Assembly: GCA_020059745.1 (NCBI GenBank) | Contig: JAGVBK010000002.1 | Coordinates: forward strand, 104,301-168,300 | DNA: 64,000 nt | Source of the DNA: Candidatus Shapirobacteria bacterium | Lineage (GTDB): Bacteria > Patescibacteriota > Microgenomatia > UM-FILTER-40-11 | Direction: 5' to 3' | Part shown: positions 8,404 to 61,662 of the stretch, piece after piece | Numbering within the stretch: position 1 is the stretch's first letter | How the letters are laid out: each line of letters starts with the position of its first letter | Position numbers and translations under genes: made by a program | The notes under the pieces: model-generated | The model's database searches: none | What the model was told of the DNA's origin: nothing | The model's input: the letters and a program-made list of their open reading frames with translations, nothing else

Positions 8404-9549
8404 CTACTTGACAAGTCCCAGATACTGCTCCCGCCAGAATGTGGCTGCAATAGCCATTCCTTCCCACCCTACGGGAATTCTGGCTTTGGGATAGCTTGGG
8501 ATCAATATCAAGTTTGGGTCGGTCGGCACCTCCAGACGCTCTCCGTCGAACGGAAATTCGAACGGATTCCTGATGAAAAACGCGTCTTGGGGAGGTGCCT
8601 GCCAGTTGCCGTTGCCCAGATCGACGAGCCTGACACTCGGTGCAAGGCCGAATGTTGAGCGGATCCACGCTTCGTTCACCTGTGAAGGCGAAAAAGCGGG
8701 GGTCGCACTGGGAACGACGGGCGTTGGGGCAGCTAGCGGAACTGGTGTCTGAGTTGGCACAACTTGGGCTACCAAAGTAGCTGTCGGCTGTACCAAACTT
8801 GAGACCTGACCGATTTGACCAACTGAGGTCACAGGGATCACGCCAGTGATCCTGTGATACTCGTCAATACTGAAAGGCCTGAACGTGATCCCCTGTACAG
8901 GACCACACCAACCAGCAGGAATTCCTGACCCAACTGCTTCTGGGGGAAAACCCTCTTCTAGGGTCCTCCCGTGCAACTCCCGCTGTCTGCGGTCCGCCAT
9001 CCAGCCATCTTGCCGGAAAGGAGTGAAGTTACAAACCTCAATGGAAACAATATTCCCAAAGAGGTCTTTCTCCTCCGGCACCTTCCAGCTCCATGGCTCA
9101 CCCCTAGCCCTGCTAACCTCGCTGGGCTCAATGGACGGCTGAGCCTGTCTCCTTGTTGCAAGGATAACAAACTCATCCACTGACCTTGGCCAATCCTCCA
9201 TGACCTCAAGGCCTAGAACCCTGATGTCGTCCAGAGTCTGACCGCCAGTCAGAGTAAGCCCGAAAGCCTGAACCCTAGGTGACGGTGCCATTGCAACCGT
9301 CGGTTCGGATTGAACAGCCTCCTGACCGGGAGTCGGAGTCACAAGGACCTCAACAACCCGAGTCACTTCGACCGGAACCTCCTTCTCGACAACGACGGTC
9401 TCCTTGACCACCTGAGGGACGACCCTGGTGACCTCGACCGGGACCGTCTCCTTGACGATCTCGGGCGTTGGTGTCAGAGCACTTTCCCTGAGCGCACAAC
9501 CCGTGATCATCACGATAGCCACCATTACAACCAGGAATATCATCTTCAT
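8404..9549 (-). CDS. Lipoprotein, unknown function (GC-rich island)
   Basis: 381 aa. It has a signal peptide with lipobox MITGC and an AGGAGG-type SD upstream. An N-terminal tandem KETV.VEVTRVV repeat and Pro/Thr linkers are present. I recognised no family. Confidence 0.6.
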   Translation of the reverse strand: MKMIFLVVMVAIVMITGCALRESALTPTPEIVKETVPVEVTRVVPQVVKETVVVEKEVPVEVTRVVEVLVTPTPGQEAVQSEPTVAMAPSPRVQAFGLTLTGGQTLDDIRVLGLEVMEDWPRSVDEFVILATRRQAQPSIEPSEVSRARGEPWSWKVPEEKDLFGNIVSIEVCNFTPFRQDGWMADRRQRELHGRTLEEGFPPEAVGSGIPAGWCGPVQGITFRPFSIDEYHRITGVIPVTSVGQIGQVSSLVQPTATLVAQVVPTQTPVPLAAPTPVVPSATPAFSPSQVNEAWIRSTFGLAPSVRLVDLGNGNWQAPPQDAFFIRNPFEFPFDGERLEVPTDPNLILIPSYPKARIPVGWEGMAIAATFWREQYLGLVK

Positions 9550-10285: not shown

Positions 10286-11068
10286 CTACTCGAACCAAAC
10301 CACTGCGGTCCAGACCTTAACGTGCCCCGGCCCCTTGAATTTGTCTAGGTTTTCCCCAAGAATTGGGTTCCACCCGGTGACCAAGGCATTCTCGGGCACA
10401 GCGAGCATGACAGGGTTTCCACCACTGTTATAGTCAAAGCTGCACCCATCCTTCCGAAGGGCCCAGACACCACCAGTGACAACATTGGCTTGAAGCCAAT
10501 CGATGCTTGGGCAACCCTCGGGTTGGTCCGGAATCGGGAGCCTCGGCAAAGGCGGATTGAACACCACTGGGAGAAACAAAATACTTTCTCCAGGTGTCGG
10601 AACCACCGTTGGCTCGGCGGTTGCCATTGCAGTTGGTTCCGGCGTGGCGGTCGGCGTTGCCGTTACAGTTGGTACTGTAACCGTTGGCTCGGCCGTTGCC
10701 GTGGCGCTCTGTGGCTCAATCCACAGAACCCCGTCCCAAAATTCTCCCGAACCAGGTCCTTCCACCAGAAGGTCTTTTTGGCCCTCCGGCTCCGGCCGCG
10801 GATCCCAACCAGTCATCTTGGATCCACCCGCGGGGACAACGAGCAAGATCGGCTCCTCAAACGGGCCTCTTCCGCTCTCGAAAACAAAATCACAACCTTC
10901 GTCGGGCCCGACTTTCCACATCGAGAGTTCACCCCCGATGTTTTCCGCGACCCACTCGAGATCCGGGCACTCTTGCGGGGGTTCCGGAATGGCAACCTCC
11001 GCTGAGAGCTGGAACGGCAAAACTGCCGCCAGCGCGACCACAACCGCGAGTACAAGACTGCGCTTCAT
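10286..11068 (-). CDS. Secreted protein with internally duplicated 2-Cys domain (GC-rich island)
   Basis: The start is taken at MKRSLVLAVVVALAAV (signal peptide), with an AGGAGGGG SD. Two homologous ~85-aa domains (CPDLEW...GCDF...TGWDP and CPSIDW...GCSF...TGWNP) are joined by a Thr/Pro/Ala linker. Confidence 0.6.
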   Translation of the reverse strand: MKRSLVLAVVVALAAVLPFQLSAEVAIPEPPQECPDLEWVAENIGGELSMWKVGPDEGCDFVFESGRGPFEEPILLVVPAGGSKMTGWDPRPEPEGQKDLLVEGPGSGEFWDGVLWIEPQSATATAEPTVTVPTVTATPTATPEPTAMATAEPTVVPTPGESILFLPVVFNPPLPRLPIPDQPEGCPSIDWLQANVVTGGVWALRKDGCSFDYNSGGNPVMLAVPENALVTGWNPILGENLDKFKGPGHVKVWTAVVWFE

Positions 11069-11216
11069 TTCCCCTCCTGGGATCATAAGGATGGCAAATA
11101 CTCAATGTGCTTCTGGTCTCACCAGCCAGATTGGCGCTTACGCCTTTCTAGTTATTGAAACCAGAAAAGGAAATTGAACTCCTAGTTTCCTTTCCCGGCT
11201 TCAACCGGAAACTTCT

Positions 11217-48047: not shown

Positions 48048-48788
48048 ATGGCCAAAGATAAAGATAAAAAAGACGAAAAAGAAAAGAAAGTAAAATCTTC
48101 CGGTAAGGGCGAGCGGTTTGTGGATATGTCAGCCGATGCTGTAGTTGTCGACGAAAATGTTCTTGAAGAACAACTTAACGAGGAAAAAGAAGAGAAAGAA
48201 CCTAAAGTCAGAGGTAAAAAATACCAGGAAGCAAGAAAAAAAGTTGATACCACCAAAGCCTATTCGCCTAAAGAGGCCTTTGAGCTTCTTAAAGAAGTTT
48301 CAGTTTCTAAGAAAAACGGCACTGTTGAAGCCCATTTCAATGTCACTGAAAAAGGCTTAAGCGGAGACACCAACCTTCCCCATTCAACCGGAAAAGCAAG
48401 GAAAGTGGCCATATTTAGCGACGAACTGGCAGAACAAATCAAGGCCGGAAAAATTGACTTTGATGTTCTTTTGGCCACTGCTGCTGACATGCCGAAAATT
48501 CTGCCTCTAGCAAAAGCTTTAGGACCCAAAGGTCTGATGCCAAACCCAAAAAGCGGCACTCTTGTTCCTGATCCCAAAAAAGCTTTAGAAAACTTTTCGG
48601 GAAATAGCCTTCACTATAAAACTGAAAAAGATTTCCCTCTTATCCATACTGTCATTGGCAAAGTTGACCAGCCGGTTGAAGAATTAACAGAAAACCTTAA
48701 AGCCCTGGTAAAAGCAGTAAACCCCAAAAACATCAAAAAAGTCACGGTCAAATCCACCATGAGCCCGGGAATAAGAGTAAACTTCTGA
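48048..48788 (+). CDS. rplA: 50S ribosomal protein L1 (with Lys/Glu-rich N-terminal extension)
   Basis: Contains GTVEAHFNV, GLMPNPKSGT and IHTVIGK motifs. Confidence 0.9.
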   Translation: MAKDKDKKDEKEKKVKSSGKGERFVDMSADAVVVDENVLEEQLNEEKEEKEPKVRGKKYQEARKKVDTTKAYSPKEAFELLKEVSVSKKNGTVEAHFNVTEKGLSGDTNLPHSTGKARKVAIFSDELAEQIKAGKIDFDVLLATAADMPKILPLAKALGPKGLMPNPKSGTLVPDPKKALENFSGNSLHYKTEKDFPLIHTVIGKVDQPVEELTENLKALVKAVNPKNIKKVTVKSTMSPGIRVNF

Positions 48789-48792
48789 AAAA

Positions 48793-50100
48793 TTAGCTTG
48801 TCTTGTTTCTTAATTGCCTGAATTTGTCTTGAACTTCAATTGGTAAATCCTCTGTGGCTTTCCCCTTCTCACTGACCATGATTCCGTAGATAGTGTCAAG
48901 CACTTCCTCTGGCCTTAACTCACGACCCCCGGTTTCAAAAGATGAACGCCTTAAAATTGCGTATTCAAGTTCCAAAAGATTTTGAGCATTTTCTAAAGTA
49001 GGATTTCCTCCCCTTTTTACTGCTCTTGCCCTTAATTCAACTACTTTATCCCTCAGTCTTTCTCCATTGGTAATATAGTTTTTATCTAGCTCTCCGCTTA
49101 GATAACCTTTTATTCTATTAACCAAATCCTCTGTTTTATAAGTAAAATTATGGCTGCCCATAATTGTCCTTCCTTTAAGTGCTTCTAAAAGTTCAGAAAA
49201 AAGCTGTGAAGAAGCAATGCTTGGTTTTTCCCGAGATTTTTCTTCAGGCTTTAAAGCCGGCTCAGCCCGATATCCTGTCACTTCGGTGGCAACAACAGTA
49301 ATGTCATCTTTTTTTGCCCTGAAATGGCGGCTTTGCGCTCTTTCCAGAGCTTTTTCCACCAACCTTTTTGCCACTTGTTTTGAATTCCCAAAAAGAGCTT
49401 CTTTAATTTCCTCATCAGTCAAGTTATCGGAAACTCCGTCAGTTACCCCGATAATCCTGTCTCCGGGTTTAAGAGCCAAGACAAAAATATCAGGAAGTTC
49501 TTCTTCGTCGCTGCCAAGATAGCGAACCAGCTTATTTCTGTGCTTGTAAAAAAGACCCACCTCCGGTCTAAGATTTTTAAGTTCCGACTCATTTTTTGCC
49601 TGGTCAACCGCCTTAGCTTCGCTTGGAGTTATTTTCCCGGCATCAACCATTTCATTTAAAGGATTGTGGTCTTTGGTTATTTGTTCAAGCCTTCCGTCCC
49701 GGTAAAGGTAAACCCGGCTGTCTCCAATATTCCCAATTACTACTTTTTTTCCTCCTTCCACAAAAAGAGCAGCAACCGCAGTTGTTCCAGACTCAGGAAC
49801 TCCATTTCTAACACCTCTTCCTGCTTCAATAAAAGCTTCCTCTAAAGTCCTTCTTGCCTCAAACTCATTGCTGTTAGAAGAAAAACCTTTTAGTTTTCTG
49901 GAAAAGACCAAATTCGCCCTTGAGGCAGCCTCTTTCCCTCCTGACATGCCTCCCATACCATCAAAAACAGCAAAATTGCTTCCTTCGGTCCAAAAAGAGT
50001 CTTCGCCCTTTTCCGCCCTGTTTTCAACAGCCAAAGTAGCAGAAAGCCTTTGGCTGGTTTCCGGAGGTCGGGCAAATTCCTGAAAAGATTGGTCGCTCAT
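48793..50100 (-). CDS. PP2C-family Ser/Thr phosphatase with ~150-aa C-terminal extension
   Basis: Contains FAVFDGMGG, GDSRVYL and TDGVSDNL motifs in the N-terminal ~270 aa. The C-terminal part is unassigned. Confidence 0.8.
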   Translation of the reverse strand: MSDQSFQEFARPPETSQRLSATLAVENRAEKGEDSFWTEGSNFAVFDGMGGMSGGKEAASRANLVFSRKLKGFSSNSNEFEARRTLEEAFIEAGRGVRNGVPESGTTAVAALFVEGGKKVVIGNIGDSRVYLYRDGRLEQITKDHNPLNEMVDAGKITPSEAKAVDQAKNESELKNLRPEVGLFYKHRNKLVRYLGSDEEELPDIFVLALKPGDRIIGVTDGVSDNLTDEEIKEALFGNSKQVAKRLVEKALERAQSRHFRAKKDDITVVATEVTGYRAEPALKPEEKSREKPSIASSQLFSELLEALKGRTIMGSHNFTYKTEDLVNRIKGYLSGELDKNYITNGERLRDKVVELRARAVKRGGNPTLENAQNLLELEYAILRRSSFETGGRELRPEEVLDTIYGIMVSEKGKATEDLPIEVQDKFRQLRNKTS

Positions 50101-50146
50101 CTTAGACCATGATATTTTGTTTTTTCTTTCAATGCAACCAATACCA

Positions 50147-50176
50147 TTGCCAAGAAATAAATATAAATGCTATAAT
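50147..50176 (+). promoter_or_regulatory. Strong sigma-70-type promoter (extended -10)
   Basis: TTGCCA (50147-50152), an 18-nt spacer, then TGcTATAAT (50168-50176). Confidence 0.6.
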
Positions 50177-50248
50177 ATTAATAGCTTATAGTATTCATTG
50201 TCTGATAGCCGTTGCCGTCGTCTTCTTCCCCCAGGAAAAGGAGGCATC

Positions 50249-50434
50249 GTGGCAAAGCCGGCAAGAAAGGGCAATGGATCAAAGCCTCGGGGTGAAAAGG
50301 GTCAAGCCAGGCACAGAAGCGCCAGGCCAGTCATTCCTGATCCTTCTCCACTCGTGGCAGGCGGAGACTACAGTGACGAGAATTTGTTGGCAAGAGCCGA
50401 AAGGGGCCTGCTACATTCTCTGCACATCACCTGA
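50249..50434 (+). CDS. Candidate 61-aa basic protein in a GC-rich patch (or part of an ncRNA)
   Basis: AAGGAGG (50238-50244) lies 4 nt upstream of GTG 50249. The product is MAKPARKGNGSKPRGEKGQARHRSARPV.... The unit has its own promoter and terminator. No family recognised. Confidence 0.35.
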   Translation: MAKPARKGNGSKPRGEKGQARHRSARPVIPDPSPLVAGGDYSDENLLARAERGLLHSLHIT

Positions 50435-50451
50435 AGTCCCCCCTCCCCACC

Positions 50452-50505
50452 GGTCCGGTGTTGAAGCGCTGCTTGCAGCCCTTCTTTTTTTCACCGGACC
50501 TTTTT
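50452..50505 (+). terminator. Terminator-like hairpin
   Basis: GGUCCGGUG (50452-50460) pairs with CACCGGACC (50492-50500) and is followed by UUUUU. The loop is unusually long. Confidence 0.45.
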
Positions 50506-50559
50506 CTGGCTTTCTTCTACTCCCTTGCTTTTAAAACACTTTCATGCTATTATTTTTTA

Positions 50560-50668
50560 AGCCTTAAGACAGTAAGTGTCTGGTGAAACCGGACTTAATT
50601 TCTTACCGAGGGGACAAATTAATCTTTTGTTTTTGCCTCGGTAAAGCCGGGGTTTTTATTTTTTAAGG
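50560..50668 (+). promoter_or_regulatory. rplJ (L10) leader with terminator/antiterminator alternative
   Basis: UACCGAGG (50604-50611) can pair with CCUCGGUA (50636-50643). Alternatively, CCUCGG (50636-50641) pairs with CCGGGG (50647-50652), which is followed by a U-run just before the rplJ SD. Confidence 0.5.
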
Positions 50669-50674
50669 AGTAAA

Positions 50675-51193
50675 ATGAAAAAACAAGATAAATTTTTTGA
50701 AGTTGACAACTTAAATGCAAAAATTAAGGACGCCAAATCAGTGGCCCTGGTTGACTACCGCGGCATTACCGTCTCTCAGGCTACTGCTTTAAGAGAAAAA
50801 GTAAAAGAGGCCGGCGGTGAGCTTCAGGTTGTAAAAAATAACCTTTTCTTTAGGGCCTTAAGACAAAACGACTACGAAGTTGAAAAAGAAAAACTTGAAG
50901 GCCCTTCCCTTGCCCTTTTTGCCAACGCTGATGAGATTACTCCCCTTAAAGCTTTAGTTTCATTTGCCAAAACATCAGGACTTCTACCTTTTAAAATTGG
51001 TTTTATGGAAGGAAGAGTTCTTTCTGAGGCTGAACTTAACCGCTTTGCCAATCTTCCCAGCAAACAGGAACTGCAAGCCAAACTCGTCGGCATGTTGGCA
51101 AGTCAGCCCGGCCGTTTGGTTTATGCTTTAAACTACAACTTACAAAGACTGGCTTTAGTATTAAATGCTGTAAAAGAGAAAAAACAGCAATAA
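50675..51193 (+). CDS. rplJ: 50S ribosomal protein L10
   Basis: 172 aa with a [18 protein letters not shown] motif. It is followed by rplL. Confidence 0.9.
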
Positions 51194-51230
51194 TTGTTTA
51201 AAATTTAAAATTTTTGTAAGGAGGTGTAAA

Positions 51231-51641
51231 ATGGCAGACGAAGCTCAAGTATCCAAAAATGTTGAAGGCTTAATTTCAGAAATCGAAAAACTGTCTGTTT
51301 TAGAACTGGCAGATCTAGTCAAGGCTTTAGAGGATAAATTCGGTGTTAGTGCCGCTCCTGTAGCCATGGCTGCTCCTGCGGGCGCTGCTCCCGCTGCTGG
51401 CGGCGAAGCTGCTCCAGCCGAGGAACAAACCACTTTCAATGTGGTTATTGCCAACGCAGGCGCCAACAAAATTTCGGTTATTAAGGCTGTAAGAGAAATC
51501 AACCAAAACCTGGGTTTAAAAGAAGCTAAGGATTTAGTTGAAGCAGCCCCGAAAGAAGTCTTAACCGGGGTTAACAAGAGTACCGCTGAAGAAGCCAAGA
51601 AAAAACTCGAGGCAGCAGGCGCTACTGTTGAATTAAAATAA
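51231..51641 (+). CDS. rplL: 50S ribosomal protein L7/L12
   Basis: It has an Ala-rich hinge and the C-terminal domain [20 protein letters not shown]... Confidence 0.95.
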
Positions 51642-51656
51642 GGCTAAGCACACCTT

Positions 51657-51685
51657 AAAAATCCCCTCTTTCTGAGGGGATTTTT
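51657..51685 (+). terminator. rplL intrinsic terminator
   Basis: AAAAUCCCCUC-UUUCU-GAGGGGAUUUUU. Confidence 0.8.
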
Positions 51686-51799
51686 AGTGGAAAAACTACA
51701 AAAATTGTAATTGCTTGACAAGCGGTTGTAGAATACATCTATAGAAAAAAGCTAAAAAGAGGCTAAAGCGCTTCTTAACAGCTTATTTTTTGTTCTTTG

Positions 51800-52617
51800 A
51801 AAAGGGAGACAGAGTTGAAGACCGAAAGGCGAAGGCACAAAACCTTCGGCTTTCGGTCTTCAGCATTCAAGATAGCCAAAAATGGCAGAAAGGAGAACTT
51901 GGCTACGGATTAGTCGATCCGCCTTACTCACCCCCAGGAGAAAAAAGTGAGAGTAGTTACGGTCGGTTCGGCAAAGGTAGTTCCAACTATCGGGGAAGAG
52001 ATGTTCCCAATGGTCGGCTTCGGACTGGGAGTCCAAACGTCAATGGGAGGCTGTTTCGGACTTAGGTCTGACCACGATGAGTCGGTTCTTGTCTGGAACA
52101 GCCAAAAGAAGCTTCCCGAGCTGCTTGAAGAAGCAGGTATTCCCTTCGTGCAGACGGGGAAAGAGTTCACAACTACTGTTCCCGGCTGCAGGGAGACTGT
52201 AATCAAATCTGGAGAAAGATTGTCTTGGAGCTTCCCGATGCCCACCCTGACAAGCGGACACCCAAAGTTCGCATTCCTTCCCCAACCCCGGTTCGCACGC
52301 ATTGGAGAAGGAAGAAGACAATACTACCTGATCAAGCTTCTCGGCGCACTGGTCGGCACCCAAGAGGCCATTGTATGCCTCGAGTTCGGACAGTTCAGCT
52401 CAAGTTACAAGAACTTGTGCTACAAGTTCGAGCTCAAGGGGGTGGTGGCAATCGGACCAAAAGAACATCTTTTCTGGCAGTTTGAACTACCCCCAGAAGA
52501 AAGCTTTGATTCTCTTCTCAAGAGAATCAAGCTTTACTAGATCCTGGCTCGCGTGCCAATTTTCCCCCAGCCTTGCGGCACGCGAGCCTTCCGTTTGGCA
52601 CTCTCTGTCTCCCTTTT
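51800..52617 (+). other. Inverted-repeat-bounded GC-rich cassette carrying one orphan gene
   Basis: A 15-bp perfect IR: AAAAGGGAGACAGAG (51800-51814) with CTCTGTCTCCCTTTT (52603-52617). Inside are a ~20-bp hairpin (51816-51862), the CDS, and a 12-bp hairpin (52546-52588). Confidence 0.6.
51947..52540 (+). CDS. Hypothetical 197-aa protein (orphan)
   Basis: GTG start with AGGAG 6 nt upstream. The amino-acid composition is balanced. No motif I recognise. Confidence 0.55.
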   Translation: MRVVTVGSAKVVPTIGEEMFPMVGFGLGVQTSMGGCFGLRSDHDESVLVWNSQKKLPELLEEAGIPFVQTGKEFTTTVPGCRETVIKSGERLSWSFPMPTLTSGHPKFAFLPQPRFARIGEGRRQYYLIKLLGALVGTQEAIVCLEFGQFSSSYKNLCYKFELKGVVAIGPKEHLFWQFELPPEESFDSLLKRIKLY

Positions 52618-52799
52618 GTAATTCTTCTATTTTCTTTCTCTTTTTTTTACTATAAAAACATCAATATATTTCAAAATGTCTAAAAGTATTTCACCCCTTT
52701 TATATCCTATTGACAACTTTTTAACTACTGTGATACTCTTTTGATTAGAAAAACATATTCTAAAGTTTAGTATTTTGAATTTCTCCCGAAAGGAGCTAT

Positions 52800-53015
52800 A
52801 TGCCTGATAAAAAGAATCTTAACCTGGATAATCTTCCCGACTTGCTTACTGTCCGCGAGGTAGCTGAAATTCTAAGAGTTTCTCCCCTAACCATTAAAAG
52901 ATGGGGCAAAAGAGGCAAGCTGCCGGCAATCAGAATCAATTCCAGAGGCGACAGAAGGTATAAAAAAGAAGCGGTCCTTTGGATGCTAGGTATTCAACCG
53001 AAAGACCAAATCTAA
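52800..53015 (+). CDS. Excisionase/MerR-type helix-turn-helix DNA-binding protein
   Basis: 71 aa. LLTVREVAEILRVSPLTIKRWGKRGKLPAIRI matches the excisionase-family HTH pattern. Confidence 0.65.
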   Translation: MPDKKNLNLDNLPDLLTVREVAEILRVSPLTIKRWGKRGKLPAIRINSRGDRRYKKEAVLWMLGIQPKDQI

Positions 53016-53089
53016 TTTTTAAAAAATTTGTTTCTTTTTAAAATCGAATAAACAGAGTTTGAAAGTTGTTTTTGCACAGTTTATAAAAA

Positions 53090-53872
53090 TTAAGAATTTA
53101 TTTTAAATTTTTCTCGAAATATTAACCAAGGAAACACAACTGTTGCCGTCCACACCCTTTTTAAGTGCCCCGGCTTTGTTAAACCTCGCCAAAGCCACTC
53201 TAAACCAATCTTCCGCATCAAAAAAGGCGCCCTCTTACTAAAACCCGTTAAAAAGTCAAGAGAGCCACCTATGCCGATAAACACTTTGGCGTTTATTTTT
53301 TCTTTATTGCCAATAATCCACTCTTCTTGCTTAACCATGCCGTGGCAAGCGAAAACAATTTTAAGCCCGCCTGCCGGATGGGCAGGTTTTAAATCTTGCC
53401 TGTCGGCAGACAGGTTTTCTATTTTAAATTCTAAGTTATCGAGGTTAACAAATTTGACCCGAGGGTACTTTTCAGATAACTTTTTAAAAAGAAACTCAGC
53501 TTCCCCTCTATCTCCTCTTCTGGCTCCGGCAATACCCACAGACCAGCCTTTACTATTAGCTGTTTCAAGTAAGCAGGAAACAAGATCAGCACCGCTTACT
53601 CTTTCTTTAACTTCCTTCCTAAATACTCTTGAAAAAAGAACCAAACCAAAACCGTCAGGAATGTTGATATCAGCCACTTTAAGGATTTCTTTGAATTTTA
53701 GGTTTTTTTGAGCTTCAACTAGAAATTCAGGATTAGGAGTAAAAATAATCAGGGGGGGCTTAGCCTCAAAACCTGGCTTTTCTTCAATTAACCCCTCAAT
53801 TTGGTCTAGCAAACTTGGCAGCTGAGTGCTATTTATGGGTACACCTAGAATATTAGCTATATTTCGGCTCAT
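53090..53872 (-). CDS. WecB/TagA/CpsF-family glycosyltransferase
   Basis: Contains PDGFGLV, GIGGSLDFLTG...RAP and GLEWLWR motifs. Confidence 0.8.
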   Translation of the reverse strand: MSRNIANILGVPINSTQLPSLLDQIEGLIEEKPGFEAKPPLIIFTPNPEFLVEAQKNLKFKEILKVADINIPDGFGLVLFSRVFRKEVKERVSGADLVSCLLETANSKGWSVGIAGARRGDRGEAEFLFKKLSEKYPRVKFVNLDNLEFKIENLSADRQDLKPAHPAGGLKIVFACHGMVKQEEWIIGNKEKINAKVFIGIGGSLDFLTGFSKRAPFLMRKIGLEWLWRGLTKPGHLKRVWTATVVFPWLIFREKFKINS

Positions 53873-54228
53873 TTTTTACATCCCCTTTGGCTTTTATGGC
53901 TGTTTTTTTTGATTTTTTCCTGCCCTGTTTTTTGCCCGCTTCAAATTTTTTTTATTTTTTTGCTAATTTTTTTGTATTTTTGTTAAAAAAAACAGGTTTT
54001 TGGCAAAAAAGACATAGGGTTTTTTTATTTTTTTCTCTTTTAATCTTACAGGATATTTTTAAAAAATAGTGTTTGTTTACTTTTTTCAGTTTTTGGGCAA
54101 ATGTTTTACTCTGGCTTTTAAACTTAATTTTTTGTTTTTCAAAGGATTTTTGCTAAAAAAATCAACTTAAAAGCTATAAGATTTATTGCTCTATTTCTAC
54201 AAGCTTATTTTTTAACACAAATTTGCTC

Positions 54229-55233
54229 CTATTTTCTAGTGACTGATCGCTTGTAAAGTTCAATGTTTTCCAAAGCAATTCCCGTTCCTTTAACAACGCA
54301 AAAAAGCGGGTCTTCGGCCACATGGCAGGAAACTCCCAACTCCTTAGTTAGCATCTTGTCAAAACCTCTAAGCAAACTTGTTCCTCCGGTCATCACAATT
54401 CCCTTGTCAATAATATCTGAGCTTAACTCAGGTGCGGTTTCTTCTAAAACCTCCTTAAGCATGTTCACAATCATGTTTAAAACCGGCTTTATTGCCTCGG
54501 TAACTTCATTTGAAGAAATAGTGATAATCTTAGGAAGACCAAGCAGAGAATCCCGGCCCTTGACTTCAAGGCTTTCTTCTTTTACCAAAGGCAAAGCAGA
54601 GCCGATTTTAATTTTAATCTCCTCAGAGGTTTGCTCGCCAATAACAATATTGTGCTTTCTCCTTAAATAAGAAGCAATTGCTTCATCAATCCTATTACCA
54701 GCCACTCTCACGCTTTTATGGACCACAACTCCGCCCAAAGAAATTACCGCTGCCTCAGAAGCACCGCCGCCCATATCTAAAACCATGTTACCCGAAGCCT
54801 GGGCAATCGGAATTTTGGCACCTATGGCCGCAGCTAAAGGCTCGTCAATAAGATAAGCGTTTCTGGCACCGGCAGAAAGAGTGGCATCCAAAACTGCCCT
54901 TCTTTCCACCTGGGTTACTCCAGCCGGAGTGCAAATCATTACCTCGGGCTTAAAAAGCCAAATCTTGCCGCAAACTTTCTGGACAAAATAGCGAAGCATT
55001 GCCTCGGTTACTTCGTAGTCAGCGATCACGCCTTCCCGAAGCGGTCTTAAAGCGGCAATATTACCGGGAGTTCTTCCCAGCATTGTCTTTGCCTCACCGC
55101 CAACTGCTAAAACCCGGTTATCTTCAACTGAAACCGCCACCACGGTTGGCTCATTAAGAACAATGCCCTTCCCAACCTCCCAAACCACAGTGTTTGCTGT
55201 CCCTAAATCAATGGCAATCTGCTTAGAAATCAC
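54229..55233 (-). CDS. mreB: MreB (copy 2)
   Basis: Contains IDLGTANT, LDMGGGASE and GGTSLLRG motifs. It is closer to canonical MreB than copy 1. Confidence 0.9.
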   Translation of the reverse strand: MISKQIAIDLGTANTVVWEVGKGIVLNEPTVVAVSVEDNRVLAVGGEAKTMLGRTPGNIAALRPLREGVIADYEVTEAMLRYFVQKVCGKIWLFKPEVMICTPAGVTQVERRAVLDATLSAGARNAYLIDEPLAAAIGAKIPIAQASGNMVLDMGGGASEAAVISLGGVVVHKSVRVAGNRIDEAIASYLRRKHNIVIGEQTSEEIKIKIGSALPLVKEESLEVKGRDSLLGLPKIITISSNEVTEAIKPVLNMIVNMLKEVLEETAPELSSDIIDKGIVMTGGTSLLRGFDKMLTKELGVSCHVAEDPLFCVVKGTGIALENIELYKRSVTRK

Positions 55234-55347
55234 TTGATATCTTCTGATATTAAATGCATATAGATAGAGACAGTTTTTAGACTATCTCTAAACTTTATTA
55301 TACAGACCTTCAAGGCTTTAGCAAGAATATTTGTAAGCTTTGCTTGG

Positions 55348-56688
55348 TTGTCTAAAATAAAGAAAAAAGATATAATTGCTAAAATGTTAAACCTTTCCAA
55401 ATACCGGGTACCCTTCTTTTTTTTAATCGTTGCTTTTGTAATCATTGGCACCTATGTTGCCATTAAATTCACTCAAGGTTATAGATTTGACTTTTCCAGT
55501 AAGTCGGTAATGCCCACCGGCATGCTGGTAGTTAACTCTTCTCCCCATGGCGCTCAAGTTTTTATTGACGGCAAGCTTAAAGGAGCCACAAACAGCACTC
55601 TTTCCCTTCCTCCGGGCGAATATCTGGTTGAAATTAAAAAACCTGGTACTTTCCCCTGGCAAAAAAAATTACTGATTGAAAAAGAGTTGGTTACCCAGGC
55701 TAACGCCTTGCTTTTCCCCCAGGTTCCTGATCTTAAACCCCTAACCTTTACCGGTGTGGAAAACCCAAAAATTTCACCTGACGGAGGAAAGATTGTTTAC
55801 AGCATTTCCTCACCTAGTCCCCAAGCCGGGCTTTGGGTTCTAGACTTGGGTGGTTTTCTTTTTAGCTCTAATCGAGAACCAAGGCAGATTGCAAAAGATA
55901 GGGCCGGTTATAACTTCTCTGAACTTAACTACTACTGGACTCCCGACTCAAGACAAATTCTTGTTGAAACCCAAAAAGAAAAATATCTGCTTGATCCCAG
56001 CCAGCTAAACCCGTCTGCAAGCTTTGTTGATGTTTCCAAAAGCCTTGAACAAATGGCTTTAACTTGGACTAAAGAAGAAAAAATCAGAAATGAAGCCAGG
56101 TTTAAGAAAGTTCCAGAAAAGTTAAAAGAAATTCTGGCTAGTTCTGCCACAGATATAAGCTTTAGCCCCGACGGCACTAAAATCCTTTACACAGCTACCG
56201 CTTCGGCTGAAATTCCGGAAAAGTTGATTCCGCCGGTTCCCGCTTCCTCAAACCAGCCTGAATCAAGAAAAATCGAGGCAGGTAGGCTTTATGTTTACGA
56301 CATAAAAGAGGATAGAAACTTTACAATTCCCTTTAATCTGCCTGAACCTACCCCCACCCCAACACAAGCCAAAAGCGTAAAAACAAAAGATAAAACCATA
56401 ACTCCCACTCCAACCCCCACCCCGGTTAAGATTGAAACGGAAAACTGGCTAACTAAACCCAATTGGTTTCCTTCAAGCAACCACTTAATCTGGCTTGAGG
56501 CGGGAGAGAACGGAGACAAGGTCATTATCTGCGAGTATGACGGCACCAACTCCACTGCTGTTTACTCTGGCCCAATGGTAAGTCCATTTGCCTTTGTTTC
56601 TCCAGGCGGAGAAAGGCTGGTTATTCTTACTCAGATTAGTTTTGACCCTGAATCAAAACCAAACCTCTACTCTGTTTCCTTGAAGTAA
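55348..56688 (+). CDS. PEGA-domain protein with beta-propeller-like C-terminal region
   Basis: It has an N-terminal TM helix and a PEGA-like SSPHGAQVFIDGKLKG...PGEYLVEIKKPG motif. Repeated SPDG.KI.Y segments and a Thr/Pro linker follow. Confidence 0.6.
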   Translation: MSKIKKKDIIAKMLNLSKYRVPFFFLIVAFVIIGTYVAIKFTQGYRFDFSSKSVMPTGMLVVNSSPHGAQVFIDGKLKGATNSTLSLPPGEYLVEIKKPGTFPWQKKLLIEKELVTQANALLFPQVPDLKPLTFTGVENPKISPDGGKIVYSISSPSPQAGLWVLDLGGFLFSSNREPRQIAKDRAGYNFSELNYYWTPDSRQILVETQKEKYLLDPSQLNPSASFVDVSKSLEQMALTWTKEEKIRNEARFKKVPEKLKEILASSATDISFSPDGTKILYTATASAEIPEKLIPPVPASSNQPESRKIEAGRLYVYDIKEDRNFTIPFNLPEPTPTPTQAKSVKTKDKTITPTPTPTPVKIETENWLTKPNWFPSSNHLIWLEAGENGDKVIICEYDGTNSTAVYSGPMVSPFAFVSPGGERLVILTQISFDPESKPNLYSVSLK

Positions 56689-56755
56689 CTTCTCTGAACT
56701 AAACAAATTGTCCCGCCCTTAGCGGGACAATCGTTCTCACATATCCTAATTTTTT

Positions 56756-57535
56756 TTATTCACTTTCCCCTACCGGAGCAATTGACCAGTCTTTAATCAG
56801 CCTGGTTTCTTCTACCTGGTTTAAGGAAGAATCCCAAGTTCCGCTTACCCTGACACGGTGGCCCTCTTTAAGCTCGGAAAAGGGAATCTCCTTGTGAGCC
56901 CTATTAACAATTTTAGTGCTCTCTTTAACAAGTACGGCTTGATCCTCTCTTTTTGCCGTCTCAATAACCAGCTTGCCCTCGCTTAGGCTTTTTATCTTGC
57001 CCCAAAAAGTGGCAAACCTCTTTTGTAAGGAAAGATCTCTCAAAATCCTTAATTCAAGTACCGCGTTGTCGCTGTCCTGCCAGGTTCCCCGGGCAGAAAC
57101 AAGATGGCCGACTTTAAGATCAGAAACCAAAGCCTTTCCTCCATATTTTTTAAGAATGACTGTTTTCTCAGTTACCAAAAGCTTAACTTCTTTACTTTCA
57201 TGGGTAACAGTAATTTCGTTTCCGGAAATTACTTTTATTTCTGCTTGGTTAAGTCCGGCCGGAAGAAGCTTTGGGTAAAGTTTTCTTATTCTTTCAAGAA
57301 TTCTTGAACGGATGTTTTGACCTGCCTGGCCTGAAGGCGTTGCCAATCTTTTTTCTTCCGTTATCTCGTTTCTTGCTTCTTCTTTTATCCCTTTAATGCT
57401 TTCCCTTACCTCCTCCTTAATTTCTTTTCTTATTGCATTTTGCATTTGGGGAGCATTGCCCTGGCCAAAAACCTGGGTATTAAAAAGAAAAAGAAAGATG
57501 ACAAAAAAAACAGCAGTTTTCTTCAATGGTCTCAC
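56756..57535 (-). CDS. Secreted protein with two DUF5666-like repeats
   Basis: It has a signal peptide and the repeated pattern S.LK.GH.V...GTW. Confidence 0.45.
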   Translation of the reverse strand: MRPLKKTAVFFVIFLFLFNTQVFGQGNAPQMQNAIRKEIKEEVRESIKGIKEEARNEITEEKRLATPSGQAGQNIRSRILERIRKLYPKLLPAGLNQAEIKVISGNEITVTHESKEVKLLVTEKTVILKKYGGKALVSDLKVGHLVSARGTWQDSDNAVLELRILRDLSLQKRFATFWGKIKSLSEGKLVIETAKREDQAVLVKESTKIVNRAHKEIPFSELKEGHRVRVSGTWDSSLNQVEETRLIKDWSIAPVGESE

Positions 57536-57599
57536 CCCCTTTCTTTTTATTAATACCCCAAAAGAAGCAAAAAAGTTTCAAACTGCTAAAGGTTTGGGA

Positions 57600-58016
57600 T
57601 TATTCAATTTCGTAGTAAACCACTAGCTCTTCTTCCGCATCTCCAATTTCATTTCCGGCTACTACCAAAATATAGTTTTCCCCTTCCTCAAGTTCAAGGG
57701 AAACATTGAAACTCCCGTCTTTGTCGGCAACAGTCTCTTTATCATTCACAAACACTTCAGCTTGAGCCAATGTTTTACCCCTAACTTCAACTATGGCTTG
57801 GCCTAGCGTGGTCTTGTTTTTAGGGCTCTCTATTTCAAGAAAGAATCGCTCTTTTTTTAATAAAGAATCTTCTTCCTTGTTTACCGCTGTTTGGCTTTCC
57901 TCGGTTAATTCCTTCAGGCTCTCCGGCTTTTGGGTGAAAACAAGGTACCCCCCCAAAAAAAGAAGAATAATAAACCCGGCAAGTAAATAAATTGTGGCTG
58001 CTCCTTTATTTTTCAT
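57600..58016 (-). CDS. Membrane-anchored extracytoplasmic protein
   Basis: The start is taken at MKNKGAATIYLLAGFIILLF. It has a single TM helix and a beta-rich C-terminal domain. Confidence 0.45.
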   Translation of the reverse strand: MKNKGAATIYLLAGFIILLFLGGYLVFTQKPESLKELTEESQTAVNKEEDSLLKKERFFLEIESPKNKTTLGQAIVEVRGKTLAQAEVFVNDKETVADKDGSFNVSLELEEGENYILVVAGNEIGDAEEELVVYYEIE

Positions 58017-58389
58017 TTTCTTTAAAGAGAATATATAAAGAAAAAGCAAAAGTTGTCACTAAGAAGAAAAGCAGGAAAAGCTCTTTTAATGGGTTTGCCT
58101 CAAGCATGGCTTGAAAAACTGCCCTAGGTTCTGTGGCTAGCCAGCTTTTATCCCAAAAAAGAAGCTGCCAGAACCCAAGGCTGTTAAGTGTTTTTGATAC
58201 CTGGAAAGCTTGCCTGACTGTAAAGAAAGCCAAAAGCACGGAAAGAAAAAGAAGCAAAAAAGAAAGCCTTCTTTCCCAAAGCTTTATTGCCTCCATTTTA
58301 ATTATTTCCCAAATGATTTTTTCAACCGGCCTTTTAGGCTCTACCTTAGGCAAGTTTTCAATTAGTTTTTTTAATTTGTCTTCTTTCAT
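58006..58389 (-). CDS. Putative anti-sigma factor (membrane protein)
   Basis: 127 aa with several TM helices. It lies immediately downstream of, and is probably translationally coupled to, the ECF sigma gene. The call is by position only. Confidence 0.4.
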   Translation of the reverse strand: MKEDKLKKLIENLPKVEPKRPVEKIIWEIIKMEAIKLWERRLSFLLLFLSVLLAFFTVRQAFQVSKTLNSLGFWQLLFWDKSWLATEPRAVFQAMLEANPLKELFLLFFLVTTFAFSLYILFKENEK

Positions 58390-58390
58390 T

Positions 58391-58945
58391 TTAAATTAAA
58401 TCGCTAAGTTCTGATTCAAGCTTTTCCTTGCCCCTTTTGATGTGGGTTCTTATGGTATTAACCGGCATACCCAGGCTTTCGGCAATCTCATTATATTTCA
58501 AGTCTTCAAAATAGTATAAAAAAAGTGCTAAACGGTACTTTTCAGGCAGTTTTTGCAAGGCTTTCTGCACTCTTTCCGCTATCTCATTCCCGCAAACTTC
58601 ATCTAAAAGGTTAGTTTTCTCATCTACCACTTCCTTTTCCTGCCATTCTCCGTTTTCGTTTTTAATTTTAGGAAAAAGAAAGGTTGTTTTTGCTTTCCTA
58701 AAGCTTAAACAGGTGTTTGTGGCTACCTTGTAAGCCCATGGTTTAAACCGTGAGCCCTTGTCAAAAGTTTTAAGATATTTATAAATTCTTAAAAATATTT
58801 CGCTGGTCAGGTCTTCAGCTAAAAAGTGGTCGCCAAGAAAACGGTAAGAAAGATTAAAAAAAGGTTTGTGATAACGCCTAAAAAGCTCTCCTAAAGCTTC
58901 TTTATCGGAATTCAAAACCCTTTCTACTAATTCTTCGTCTGTCAT
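58391..58945 (-). CDS. ECF-type RNA polymerase sigma factor
   Basis: 184 aa with region 2 (FLRIYKYLKTFD....F.PWAYKVATN) and the region 4 HTH (YNEIAESLGMPVNTIRTHIKRGKEKL). Confidence 0.85.
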   Translation of the reverse strand: MTDEELVERVLNSDKEALGELFRRYHKPFFNLSYRFLGDHFLAEDLTSEIFLRIYKYLKTFDKGSRFKPWAYKVATNTCLSFRKAKTTFLFPKIKNENGEWQEKEVVDEKTNLLDEVCGNEIAERVQKALQKLPEKYRLALFLYYFEDLKYNEIAESLGMPVNTIRTHIKRGKEKLESELSDLI

Positions 58946-58976
58946 TAATAAAAATTAATTAAAAGGGCAGAATTTG

Positions 58977-59049
58977 TGCCGCTGGAGGGAATCGAACCCC
59001 CAACCTTTCCCTTAGGACGGGACTGCTCTATCCGTTGAGCTACAACGGC
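58977..59049 (-). tRNA. tRNA-Arg (anticodon CCU)
   Basis: The reverse complement folds as acceptor GCCGUUG/CAGCGGC, D-arm GCUC-AACGGAUA-GAGC, anticodon loop GUCCUAA and T-arm GGGGG-UUCGAUU-CCCUC. Confidence 0.8.
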
Positions 59050-59115
59050 ATTTTGTCATAAATTTACGACATATGTATTTTACCTTAAATAGCCTCGGGA
59101 AACAAACCGAAAAAG

Positions 59116-59562
59116 CTAATAGCTAACCCTATCTCCTATTTCAATGCCATTTGCTTCGCACCAGCCTGAATTAACCTCAATTACTTTGTCTGCCGGTTCG
59201 CGGCTGGTATAGGTTTTCCTTGGGCTCTCAAACTCATGAGGTCCTGGCCTAGAAACGCTTTTGGCAATATCGACAATGGTTTCTCCTCTTACCCAAATAA
59301 TATCAATATCAAAATGCATCTTCCTCATCCAAAAGCCATAAAATCCAGGTTCTGGAAACAAAAAAAGCATACCGCAATCTGGGCACAAACTTTTTCTCTC
59401 CGACAAACCCTGCTGCCTTAGGCTGGACGTATCAGCAATTTCAACTTCAATTTTTTTTCCATTAATGCTTATATAGTTTTTGCCTTCAGTTTTATGATTA
59501 AAAAAAATCAGGCCAATGATCAGAAAGACAAGACCAAAAATTATAATGCGAAGCTTAGCCAT
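59116..59562 (-). CDS. DUF192-family protein
   Basis: It has a signal anchor and the pattern GL......L....GMLF.F......FWM....F.IDIIW typical of DUF192. Confidence 0.65.
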   Translation of the reverse strand: MAKLRIIIFGLVFLIIGLIFFNHKTEGKNYISINGKKIEVEIADTSSLRQQGLSERKSLCPDCGMLFLFPEPGFYGFWMRKMHFDIDIIWVRGETIVDIAKSVSRPGPHEFESPRKTYTSREPADKVIEVNSGWCEANGIEIGDRVSY

Positions 59563-59599
59563 GCTTTAATTTTAGCATCTCGGGTGTTAAGATTTAGGT

Positions 59600-61366
59600 A
59601 TGAAGAAAATTTTTTTTGCCTTCTTGTCTTTACTACTTTTTTTCTCAAAACCCGCTTTTGCCCAAAAATACGGCTCACACCCTTACATTATAAACAACTT
59701 TGAAGCAGAAATTGACCTTAACAAAGACACTTCTTTAACTGTAACGGAAAAGATAAATACCCAGTTTAATATCCCCTCGCACGGCATTTTCAGAGTAATT
59801 CCTGTTACCTATACTGCCGGAGCCAAAACAATTAATGCAGACTTTGAAATACTTTCCCTTACTGACGAAAGCGATAATCCTGTTCCTTATGAAACAAGCC
59901 GGCTCAAGCAAAGCGTGAATATCAAAATCGGTAATCCTGACAGAGAGATAACCGGCGAAAAAACTTACCTTCTAAAATACAGAATTAAAGGCATTGTTTT
60001 AAGGTATGAGAACCACGATGAGATTTACTGGAACGTTACCGGCTGGGAATGGGACACCTGGATTGTCAAAGCCTCGGCTACCATAAATTCTCCCTATGCT
60101 GAGATTGCAAACCATCACTGTTTTGTCGGCAGTTTCGGCGAAAAAGAAACCGACTGCAGTGTTCAGAGTAGTAAAAATAAAATTGTTTTCTCCGCTAACA
60201 CCCCACTTGAGCCGGGAGAAAACCTAACTGTTGTTACCGGTCTTAACAAAAATAACCAACTTGCCTTCCCTGGCTTTTTTGAAAGGACTTTAAAAATAAT
60301 TATTGATAACTCCGGCTATTTACTGGCTTTACTGCCTTTGGCAGTTATCCTTATTGCCTGGTATAAAAAAGGCAGAGATTTAAAGTATCAATCTGATAAT
60401 GTCTATATAAAACAAGATCCGAAAACAGCTAAGGCAAAGCCTCTTTTTGCCAGAGAACACCTACCCACGGTTTACTCACCAATTGAAGGACTTACCCCTG
60501 CTGAAATCGGCACCATTCTTGACGAAAAAATGGATATGAACGATTTAATTGCTGAAATTGTGGAACTGGCCAGACTTGGGTTTTTAGAAATAAAAAAGAC
60601 AGAAGAAAAAGGGTTTTTGGTCAATAAAACCAATTATTTGTTTACTAAAAAAGGCAAATCTCCTTCAAACCTAAAGGAACACCAGAAATTGCTTCTTGAG
60701 AAGCTTTTTAATAATAAAGAAGAGGTAACCCTGGAAAGCTTAAAAAACCGTTTTTACAAACATATTCCCGCTTTTAAAGACAAAGTTTATGTTTCACTTA
60801 CTAAAGAAGAAGTTTTCGATAAAGACCCCCAAAAGGTAATTAAAAAGTGGTATTTAGTCATATTTCTTATTGGCCTTGCGGTAAGTGTGGCAATATTTTC
60901 ATTATTCCCGACACAAGGTAACCCCTTTGTGTTTGTTGTCTTGGTCTTTTCGCTGGTTGCCTCTTTTTTGGTGGTCAGACACATGCCCAGAAAAACAGGC
61001 TGGGGATACTCCCTTTATAGGCAAATAAAAGGACTAAAATATTATCTTGACAAGGGAAAGTGGCGGGAAGAAATTGCTGAAAAAAATTTGTTCTTTCAGG
61101 AAATTTTGCCTCTAAGCATTAGCCTGGGTCTGGTTCACAAGCTTTCGCGCGAAATGGCTGATTTGGGTGTTGAGCCGCCAAGTTACCTAAACGGCTTTAC
61201 CGCTGCCAGCTTTTCTTCAGACTTTAGCAGCTTTTCAAGCAGTGTTTCCGGCAACTTAGGCTCCTCTCCCAGTGGCAGATCTGGTTTTTCGGGAAGTTCT
61301 GGGTTTTCCGGAGGCGGAGGCTTCTCAGGCGGAGGTTTTGGTGGTGGTGGCGGCGGAAGATGGTAA
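59600..61366 (+). CDS. DUF2207-like membrane protein with Gly/Ser-rich tail
   Basis: 588 aa with a signal peptide and an extracytoplasmic N-terminal domain. TM helices follow, and the C-terminus ends SGGGGFSGGGFGGGGGGRW. Confidence 0.65.
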   Translation: MKKIFFAFLSLLLFFSKPAFAQKYGSHPYIINNFEAEIDLNKDTSLTVTEKINTQFNIPSHGIFRVIPVTYTAGAKTINADFEILSLTDESDNPVPYETSRLKQSVNIKIGNPDREITGEKTYLLKYRIKGIVLRYENHDEIYWNVTGWEWDTWIVKASATINSPYAEIANHHCFVGSFGEKETDCSVQSSKNKIVFSANTPLEPGENLTVVTGLNKNNQLAFPGFFERTLKIIIDNSGYLLALLPLAVILIAWYKKGRDLKYQSDNVYIKQDPKTAKAKPLFAREHLPTVYSPIEGLTPAEIGTILDEKMDMNDLIAEIVELARLGFLEIKKTEEKGFLVNKTNYLFTKKGKSPSNLKEHQKLLLEKLFNNKEEVTLESLKNRFYKHIPAFKDKVYVSLTKEEVFDKDPQKVIKKWYLVIFLIGLAVSVAIFSLFPTQGNPFVFVVLVFSLVASFLVVRHMPRKTGWGYSLYRQIKGLKYYLDKGKWREEIAEKNLFFQEILPLSISLGLVHKLSREMADLGVEPPSYLNGFTAASFSSDFSSFSSSVSGNLGSSPSGRSGFSGSSGFSGGGGFSGGGFGGGGGGRW

Positions 61367-61662
61367 ATAAACGAACGAGGGGTAGCAAAACCACAAGGCA
61401 AGAAACTGCTTTGCCACCCCTCCGGCCACTACCAACCTGATACCATGGAGAGAAATGCTCCTCCCCATTCTCTCAGTAGCGGCAGAATGCCGGTAAAAAA
61501 GGTCCAAAAAAAGATTACCTCGAAAACCGCGACCCCCATCCATGCCAAGGCGCACAGCGGATCGAATCCCAGCTTTCTCATTTTGCCCCTTTTGCCAGCT
61601 AGGCACTTGAGCCTGAACGACGCTTAAGTCTGACCAGACTCTTAAACCTCTTAAAAGTGCTA
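61366..61662 (-). ncRNA. Structured ncRNA candidate (unclassified), strand tentative
   Basis: This is a GC-richer, ORF-poor patch. On the minus strand, an extended -10 TGGTATAAT (61678-61670) lies upstream. A long hairpin (61378-61422) with a U-rich tail lies at the far end. Several perfect local hairpins lie inside. Confidence 0.4.

Follow-up and report, generated by a model that had tools for sequence, protein, structure and literature searches.

A candidate orphan gene for a 61-residue basic protein with a highly conserved leader upstream of rplJ in a Candidatus Shapirobacteria genome

Lineage-restricted small proteins of bacteria (fewer than about 70 amino acids) are encoded by monocistronic genes with a canonical Shine-Dalgarno (SD) sequence and start codon, their own promoter and their own terminator; homologues are found in narrow clades, and gene callers miss such genes or place them in the wrong frame. 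Some small RNAs have a dual function and also encode a small protein, as known for SgrS/SgrT, RNAIII/hld and SR1/SR1P; such RNAs are a few hundred nucleotides long, keep part of their untranslated sequence conserved, contain a short ORF and end in an intrinsic terminator. Leaders that occlude the SD sequence include the RNA thermometers ROSE and fourU as well as autoregulatory ribosomal-protein leaders, among them the L10 leader RF00557.

Here we describe a GC-rich unit at positions 50147-50505 of a 64,000-nucleotide stretch of DNA from a Candidatus Shapirobacteria bacterium (contig JAGVBK010000002.1); this whole stretch is called the window in the following. The unit is like lineage-restricted small-protein genes in size, start signals, layout, narrow distribution and treatment by gene callers, but it differs from them in that its leader is far more conserved than its protein, its protein diverges faster than the synonymous sites of its neighbours, and the unit is known from sequence alone. 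With the dual-function RNAs it shares the length, the conserved untranslated segment, the short ORF and the terminator; however, it has no homology to the examples named above and no Rfam match, and no base-pairing target or seed was identified. The likeness to SD-occluding leaders consists of a predicted pairing of GUCUUC with the SD sequence via G-U and A-U pairs, a long-range helix closing a domain that holds SD and start codon, and a location inside a ribosomal protein cluster. In contrast to such leaders, the unit matches no Rfam family, the predicted accessibility of its ribosome binding site (RBS) is not below that of other genes, and no covariation was seen in its invariant sequence.

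On the basis of sequence comparison we favour, with moderate confidence, the reading that the unit is an orphan, fast-evolving and lineage-restricted gene for a 61-residue basic protein with a constrained leader. If real, it would be one more unannotated or mis-annotated small-protein gene in a genome of the candidate phyla radiation; its narrow distribution (two lineages) limits its wider importance.

Anatomy of the unit and its locus

The unit lies in a ribosomal protein cluster with the following features:

Upstream side of the locus, + strand: secE-nusG-rplK-rplA, in this local gene order
48793-50100, - strand: PP2C/SpoIIE-type phosphatase gene (Pfam PP2C_2, E = 6.5e-10)
50147-50176, + strand: sigma-70-type promoter; -35 box TTGCCA at 50147-50152, 18-nt spacer, TG at 50168-50169, -10 box TATAAT at 50171-50176
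50183-50248, + strand: 5' leader of about 66 nt, with an inferred transcription start at about 50183
50238-50244, + strand: Shine-Dalgarno sequence AAGGAGG, followed by CATC and the start codon GTG at 50249-50251
50249-50434, + strand: ORF of 61 codons plus TGA (50432-50434), product MAKPARKGNGSKPRGEKGQARHRSARPVIPDPSPLVAGGDYSDENLLARAERGLLHSLHIT
50451-50504, + strand: intrinsic-terminator-like hairpin plus T5, with a 9-bp outer stem and an inner hairpin at 50462-50483
50525-50553, + strand: putative rplJ promoter TTGCTT-17-TGcTATTAT, outside the unit, from an alignment of the window with the related loci L085 and L082
50545-50667, + strand: ribosomal protein L10 leader (Rfam RF00557, 51.8 bits, gathering score 44), outside the unit
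Order after the PP2C gene: unit, L10 leader, rplJ-rplL (+ strand), second GC-rich island, HTH_17 gene

The original prediction had described a self-contained GC-rich unit with a near-consensus extended -10 promoter (TTGCCA-18-TGcTATAAT), a 61-aa ORF opened by AAGGAGG-4 nt-GTG, and a 9-bp hairpin with U5 at its end. Each of these elements was found, and the unit is indeed separate from the rplJ leader: the match to RF00557 is full-length (model positions 1-138) and lies downstream of the unit's terminator. Contig QZIO01000009.1 (GCA_003599075.1) is 100% identical to window positions 48998-60434, and two metagenomes of JGI as well as four assemblies of Logan include contigs that are nearly identical; no SNPs were observed in the unit among these other copies of the window lineage. 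The organism is present in JGI 3300007354 and 3300037067 and in SRR10812145-48.

In the promoter scan the unit's promoter reached 11 of 12 consensus matches plus the TG. One promoter-like site was found, compared with 1.0 +/- 0.9 expected from shuffles of a 1.1-kb region, and AAGGAGG occurs 18 times in the window (16.7 expected); the promoter match and the SD heptamer, each taken alone, thus do not exceed chance frequency. The spacing of 4 nt between SD and start codon is the same as in rplJ. Regarding composition, the GC content in 300-nt windows reaches the 99th percentile at the unit, with 57% compared to 41% on average for the window, and the GC3 of the unit is 0.52 compared to 0.34-0.39 for the genome.

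The hairpin, in contrast to the promoter and SD matches, was beyond chance. Its outer stem is formed by GGTCCGGTG (50451-50459) and CACCGGACC (50491-50499), with seven G-C pairs among the 9 bp, and is directly followed by T5 at 50500-50504. It folds at -26.4 kcal/mol (z = -4.4, not reached by any of 200 shuffles), and its copy in L085 at -25.7 kcal/mol (z = -5.0); the stems are intact between the two copies, as every difference is either unpaired or gives a G-U pair. A simple terminator scan missed this hairpin due to its loop limit of 8 nt. A stable GC-rich hairpin directly before a U-run, as predicted here and conserved in L085, is what characterizes an intrinsic (Rho-independent) terminator.

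Taken as a gene, the unit would be transcribed from a strong sigma-70-type promoter into an RNA of about 320 nt, independent and monocistronic. The canonical SD sequence and GTG would direct translation of the 61-residue protein, and the stable hairpin with its U-run would stop transcription shortly upstream of the separate rplJ promoter and L10 leader.

The putative rplJ promoter stays below the threshold of the promoter scan and is proposed from its conservation, as relatives retain it whether or not they carry the unit. Both the unit's promoter and the putative rplJ promoter contain, at the extended -10 element, one copy of a 13-nt direct repeat (ATGCTATAATATT at 50167-50179 and ATGCTATTATTTT at 50544-50556, 377 nt apart), and by eye the two promoter regions are about 57% alike over about 42 nt. 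This repeat could reflect a duplicated promoter or merely a local promoter consensus.

The homologue in a related lineage and the variable rplA-rplJ junction

Related loci were collected with L10 as a guide (L10 identity 60-86%), yielding about 25 loci from Microgenomates/Patescibacteria in genome contigs, metagenome contigs and exact-protein look-ups. Searches of these loci with BLASTN, TBLASTN and an nhmmer profile detected the unit in the window lineage and in L085/L086 only. L085 and L086 are two Logan contigs of one organism with an L10 that is 85% identical to that of the window, and they therefore count as one independent homologue. The L085 type is present in SRR27370448/51. About 20 other related lineages lack the unit.

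The L085/L086 sequence aligns to window positions 50171-50577 with 74.5% identity over 420 nt. In L085 the unit occupies the same position as in the window, directly before the rplJ promoter and leader, but it begins 28 nt after the stop codon of rplA with no PP2C gene between; the unit is thus conserved independently of its upstream neighbour. The opposite arrangement was found in the L082-L084 lineage, which is an equally close relative (L10 86% identical), where the PP2C gene is present and the unit is absent, and where the gap between PP2C and rplJ measures 237 nt compared to 575 nt in the window. L082 carries the L10 leader without the unit. An assignment of the unit to the L10 leader RF00557 itself was rejected, given the complete leader downstream of the terminator and this leader without a unit in L082. 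A side observation concerns ribosomal protein L1 (rplA, 48048-48788; 246 aa), which has an N-terminal extension of about 50 residues rich in Lys, Glu and Asp that is common to L085 and L082.

Homology between the window and L085 starts at the -10 hexamer and is unbroken from the predicted +1; upstream of it, L085 has TTGCTC-18-TATAAT within otherwise unrelated sequence. Three blocks can be distinguished. The first is nearly identical and runs from the -10 hexamer past the leader, the SD and the GTG into the ORF, to about codon 12-15; next comes the body of the ORF, which is diverged to saturation. The third has about 93% identity and consists of the hairpin and its T-run together with the region of the rplJ promoter. 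We judge the unit to be real because one independent lineage shares its -10 box and leader, its SD and GTG, the frame and stop position of its ORF, and its hairpin.

The position directly upstream of rplJ in both lineages, together with a stop codon 16 nt (window) or 12 nt (L085) before the hairpin, would fit an upstream module of rplJL, in which RNA synthesis begun at the unit's promoter continues past a conditional terminator (attenuator) into rplJ and translation of the small ORF modulates termination. We regard such a module as very unlikely. After the hairpin follow a separate promoter-like element and a complete L10 leader, both of which are kept in L082 without the unit, and most relatives do without the unit altogether. 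Moreover, a terminating ribosome would barely touch the stem, the folds contain no alternative anti-terminator pairing, and 61 codons are far beyond the much shorter leader peptides known from attenuation.

The original prediction regarded the rplA-rplJ junction as otherwise conserved, which did not hold. Across the clade the gap between the two genes can be as short as 186 nt or as long as 1764 nt, with many lineages at 186-311 nt, and the cargo found there in relatives is PP2C, a gene with an HD domain, ORFs of unknown kind with 179-187 or 496 aa, or the unit. The gap between rplL and the HTH_17 gene is likewise variable, with 224-1357 nt; both ranges refer to L002-L005 and L082-L104, where the unrelated cargo of the two junctions also includes minus-strand genes of 228-258 aa. 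The rplA-rplJ junction is therefore a variable cargo site, and the unit is one occupant among several that are specific to a lineage. Both junctions beside rplJL behave as gene-cargo hot spots in the clade, and the gene would be an accessory orphan in one of these two sites.

The reading frame and its predicted product

The 61-aa product is identical to the NCBI hypothetical protein C4578_01270 (P0001 in our set). L085 has a homologous ORF of 59 codons in the same frame, with a peptide that is 43% identical (E = 9e-08), and the two ORFs stop at the same aligned position (TGA and TAG, respectively). The sequence AAGGAGG-CATC-GTG is identical in the window and L085. Indels are a single nucleotide just upstream of the SD and 5 nt plus 1 nt after the stop codon, whereas length differences inside the ORF keep the frame. 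Codons 2, 4 and 5 differ synonymously only (GCA/GCT, CCG/CCA and GCA/GCG). Differences at the first, second and third codon positions number 28, 22 and 43, in what is one sequence pair with saturated third positions: 74% of the third positions and 73% of the four-fold sites differ between the window and L085.

Similarity in the diverged two-thirds of the ORF was specific to the frame. The in-frame BLOSUM score was 47, compared to 15-34 for other pairs of frames or strands and to 20 +/- 4 for shuffles, of which 1 in 5000 reached it; every other frame of either strand is interrupted in at least one copy. Folding of the middle of the ORF gave z = -0.7 and -1.7 for the two copies, with predicted folds that differ between them; this part is not a structured RNA. 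The original prediction had left the choice between a tiny basic protein and a non-coding RNA, and of these the protein is now the better supported, by the conserved frame, start and stop, the frame-specific similarity and the synonymous early changes. That the ORF is protein-coding seems fairly probable to us, judged from a comparison of two sequences only.

The gene callers of JGI and Logan report a different ORF of 141 aa in another frame (50109-50534, + strand; 130-555 in contig L112 and 158-583 in contig L113), while the NCBI annotation has the 61-aa ORF. The 141-aa frame is interrupted in L085, and we therefore consider this longer ORF to be spurious.

The 61-aa protein has a net charge of about +5 and an N-terminal half rich in Lys, Arg, Gly and Pro. 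AlphaFold2 (AF2) on the single sequence returned a low-confidence model (pLDDT 66) in which the basic N-terminal half is disordered and residues 43-58 form the one helix; this C-terminal helix is predicted to be amphipathic. From charge and location alone one might guess at a role in association with nucleic acids or the ribosome. Because the peptide is only 43% identical while L10 is 85% identical, and because third positions are saturated here but not in neighbouring genes, either the constraint on the protein would be weak or the two copies would be older than the split of their hosts.

As the original prediction had already noted for the peptide, no protein family was recognised: Pfam, PHROGs, NCBIfam and PADLOC gave no match, and no Pfam match appeared even at E <= 1. 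A word-indexed search of 5.8 billion clustered proteins returned only the protein itself. An exhaustive phmmer search of 1.84 billion representatives gave 36 matches, all of them long multi-repeat Kelch_4 proteins that were matched repeat by repeat. We rejected an identity as Kelch repeat (Kelch_1 to Kelch_6), as a Kelch profile built without reference to the query scored the window peptide at 8.5 bits and its L085 homologue at -1.9 bits, and as AF2 predicted no strands. With such low independent scores, the resemblance is best seen as chance multiplied by the number of repeats.

The Kelch matches are nevertheless one of the points that could favour inert inserted DNA, that is, a piece of a GC-rich foreign gene or of a mobile element in decay, for example a single Kelch repeat; the GC content and GC3, which are foreign to the genome, and the patchy phylogenetic distribution would agree with such an origin. 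We consider it most improbable, since the conservation of leader and terminator far exceeds what neutral drift would leave and the Kelch scores point to a chance resemblance. In addition, there are no terminal repeats and no target duplication, no second copy was found in the window or the 119 loci, and matches to phages, plasmids or viral contigs were absent: blastn of the unit against phage and plasmid collections and a search of the two conserved blocks against viral contigs were both negative. A MITE or IS element was rejected likewise, as boundaries set against L082 show neither terminal repeats nor a target duplication. A type I toxin-antitoxin system was also rejected; the peptide has no hydrophobic stretch, and no promoter-like site was present on the minus strand in 49800-50900.

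RNA families were searched with Rfam 15 (4227 models, including 6S, tmRNA, SRP and riboswitches), using the gathering score for the whole window and E <= 10 for 50050-50700. Only the L10 leader was found, and no RNA family matched the unit; the best matches inside it were eukaryotic miRNA and lncRNA models with 12-17 bits against gathering scores of 50-94. ARAGORN found no tRNA or tmRNA in the unit. The RNase-P-like strings listed in the original prediction (GGGGTGAAAAGGGT, ACAGAAG and GAAGTCC) are present, but carry no meaning: they lie in a part that is not conserved in L085, where the stretch is partly deleted, and RNase P RNA (RF00010, RF00011 and relatives) was rejected without a match at the gathering score or at E <= 10.

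The leader RNA and neighbouring GC-rich islands

The most conserved part of the unit, by alignment with L085, is the 5' leader and not the ORF, which the original prediction did not mention. Over 72 nt, extending to codon 2, the leader region shows no substitution and one 1-nt indel, giving exact matches at 50182-50226 (45 nt, AGCTTATAGTATTCATTGTCTGATAGCCGTTGCCGTCGTCTTC) and 50227-50253 (27 nt). No exact match longer than this 45-mer exists in the 5.4 kb over which the two genomes are syntenic, ribosomal protein genes included. In the same comparison, 31-53% of the four-fold sites of rplJ, rplL, rplA, rplK and the HTH gene differ; the absence of substitutions therefore argues for strong purifying selection on the nucleotides themselves. 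Leader and first codons are under much stronger constraint than the protein. A search of a metagenome contig collection with a 20-mer of the leader gave no match, which is a weak result as this collection evidently lacks the window lineage's own JGI contigs.

RNAalifold and the single-sequence folds agree on a leader domain of about 93 nt. Its predicted pairings are a helix between 50193-50203 and 50269-50279, the latter corresponding to codons 8-11 (GNGS) without any synonymous change, a pairing of GTCTTC (GUCUUC in the RNA, 50220-50225) with GGAGGC of the SD region (50240-50245), and a pairing of GCCG with UGGC of the start region. All five variable sites of the 5' domain are unpaired in the consensus fold, which was itself derived from the same two sequences, and no covarying pair was found, the pairs being invariant between these two sequences. 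Against shuffles, the domain of the window stood out as more stable (z = -2.8), whereas that of L085 did not (z = -0.55). The unpaired probability of the RBS was 0.37 and 0.42 in the two copies compared to 0.48 +/- 0.15 for 14 other genes of the window; occlusion of the SD as an outlier was rejected, since these values are within the range of other genes.

A regulatory role of the leader is therefore suggested by its extreme conservation and not by the folds, and simple masking of the SD is not established. Under our favoured reading of the unit as a small-protein gene, the 66-nt leader and the first codons would most likely act as a cis-regulatory RNA, whose folded domain with SD and start codon would set the amount of protein. 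Being more conserved than the surrounding ribosomal protein genes, the leader RNA is a candidate for a new cis-regulatory element; to our knowledge, almost no regulatory RNAs have been described in organisms of the candidate phyla radiation.

The same conservation raises the question whether the RNA itself is functional, namely as a regulatory or dual-function small RNA of about 320 nt in which the 5' domain of about 100 nt and the 3' hairpin carry the function, the middle serves as a tolerant spacer, and the ORF has a secondary role or none. We consider this unlikely, but to be taken seriously. Leader and terminator are the most conserved parts of the unit and the ORF body the least, and a concentration of conservation in untranslated RNA is equally expected of a functional small RNA. 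Homology from the -10 box that is unbroken past the predicted +1 would fit as well, as would a whole-unit fold better than shuffles (z = -2.2 for the window and -3.4 for the L085 copy) and a GC content of 57% in a 41% genome, as in many structured RNAs. However, a perfect SD and start codon are conserved, the frame and stop position are kept despite saturation of the DNA sequence in this region, the peptide similarity is frame-specific, and the changes in the first codons are synonymous. Furthermore, the middle is unstructured, Rfam gave no match, and no target or seed could be proposed.

A more far-reaching version of the small-protein reading would make the leader a new cis-regulatory RNA, sensing a ligand or binding a ribosomal protein, that gates a basic protein acting on the ribosome or on rplJL transcripts, with a 197-aa orphan from the second GC-rich island as a module of the sub-lineage. 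This combination seems quite unlikely to us. The L1-binding site appears, in the portion of the literature consulted, as a short stem with a G-A bulge; that the leader mimics this site is an idea.

The second GC-rich island is located at 51700-52660, after rplL, and contains an orphan ORF (orf197, 51947-52540, + strand, 197 aa) with a GC3 of 0.57. Among 5.8 billion protein clusters orf197 found only itself, and it had no match in Pfam, PHROG, NCBIfam or PADLOC; the AF2 model was unusable (pLDDT 34). A homologous ORF of 218 aa with 35% identity (E = 5e-23) is present in L085. As an insertion, the island separates a conserved TTGACA promoter from the HTH_17 gene, which in L082 is driven by this promoter directly. 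Island and unit occur together: both are present in the window and in L085, and both are absent from L082 and every other relative. Compared with L085, 73-85% of the four-fold sites differ in the 61-codon ORF and orf197, against 31-53% in the neighbouring ribosomal protein and HTH genes. This difference could mean a higher rate of mutation or turnover in the two orphans, or alleles that predate the split of the hosts, for example through cassette exchange between conserved flanks.

Further GC-rich stretches were noticed elsewhere in the window. On the minus strand, an unannotated stretch at 61375-61650, between a gene for a 588-aa membrane protein and tRNA-Pro, folds at -116 kcal/mol (z = -4.4, not reached in 200 shuffles) and is a candidate structured RNA; it had no Rfam match at E <= 1 and contains no tRNA or tmRNA. 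Two minus-strand islands of up to 60-62% GC, at 8404-9549 and 10286-11086, hold ORFs of 381 and 266 aa. With hydrophobic segments at the N-terminus and linkers rich in Thr, Pro and Val, both products resemble proteins that are secreted or exposed at the cell surface. The rplJ region is thus not the only place in the window with accessory genes of high GC content.
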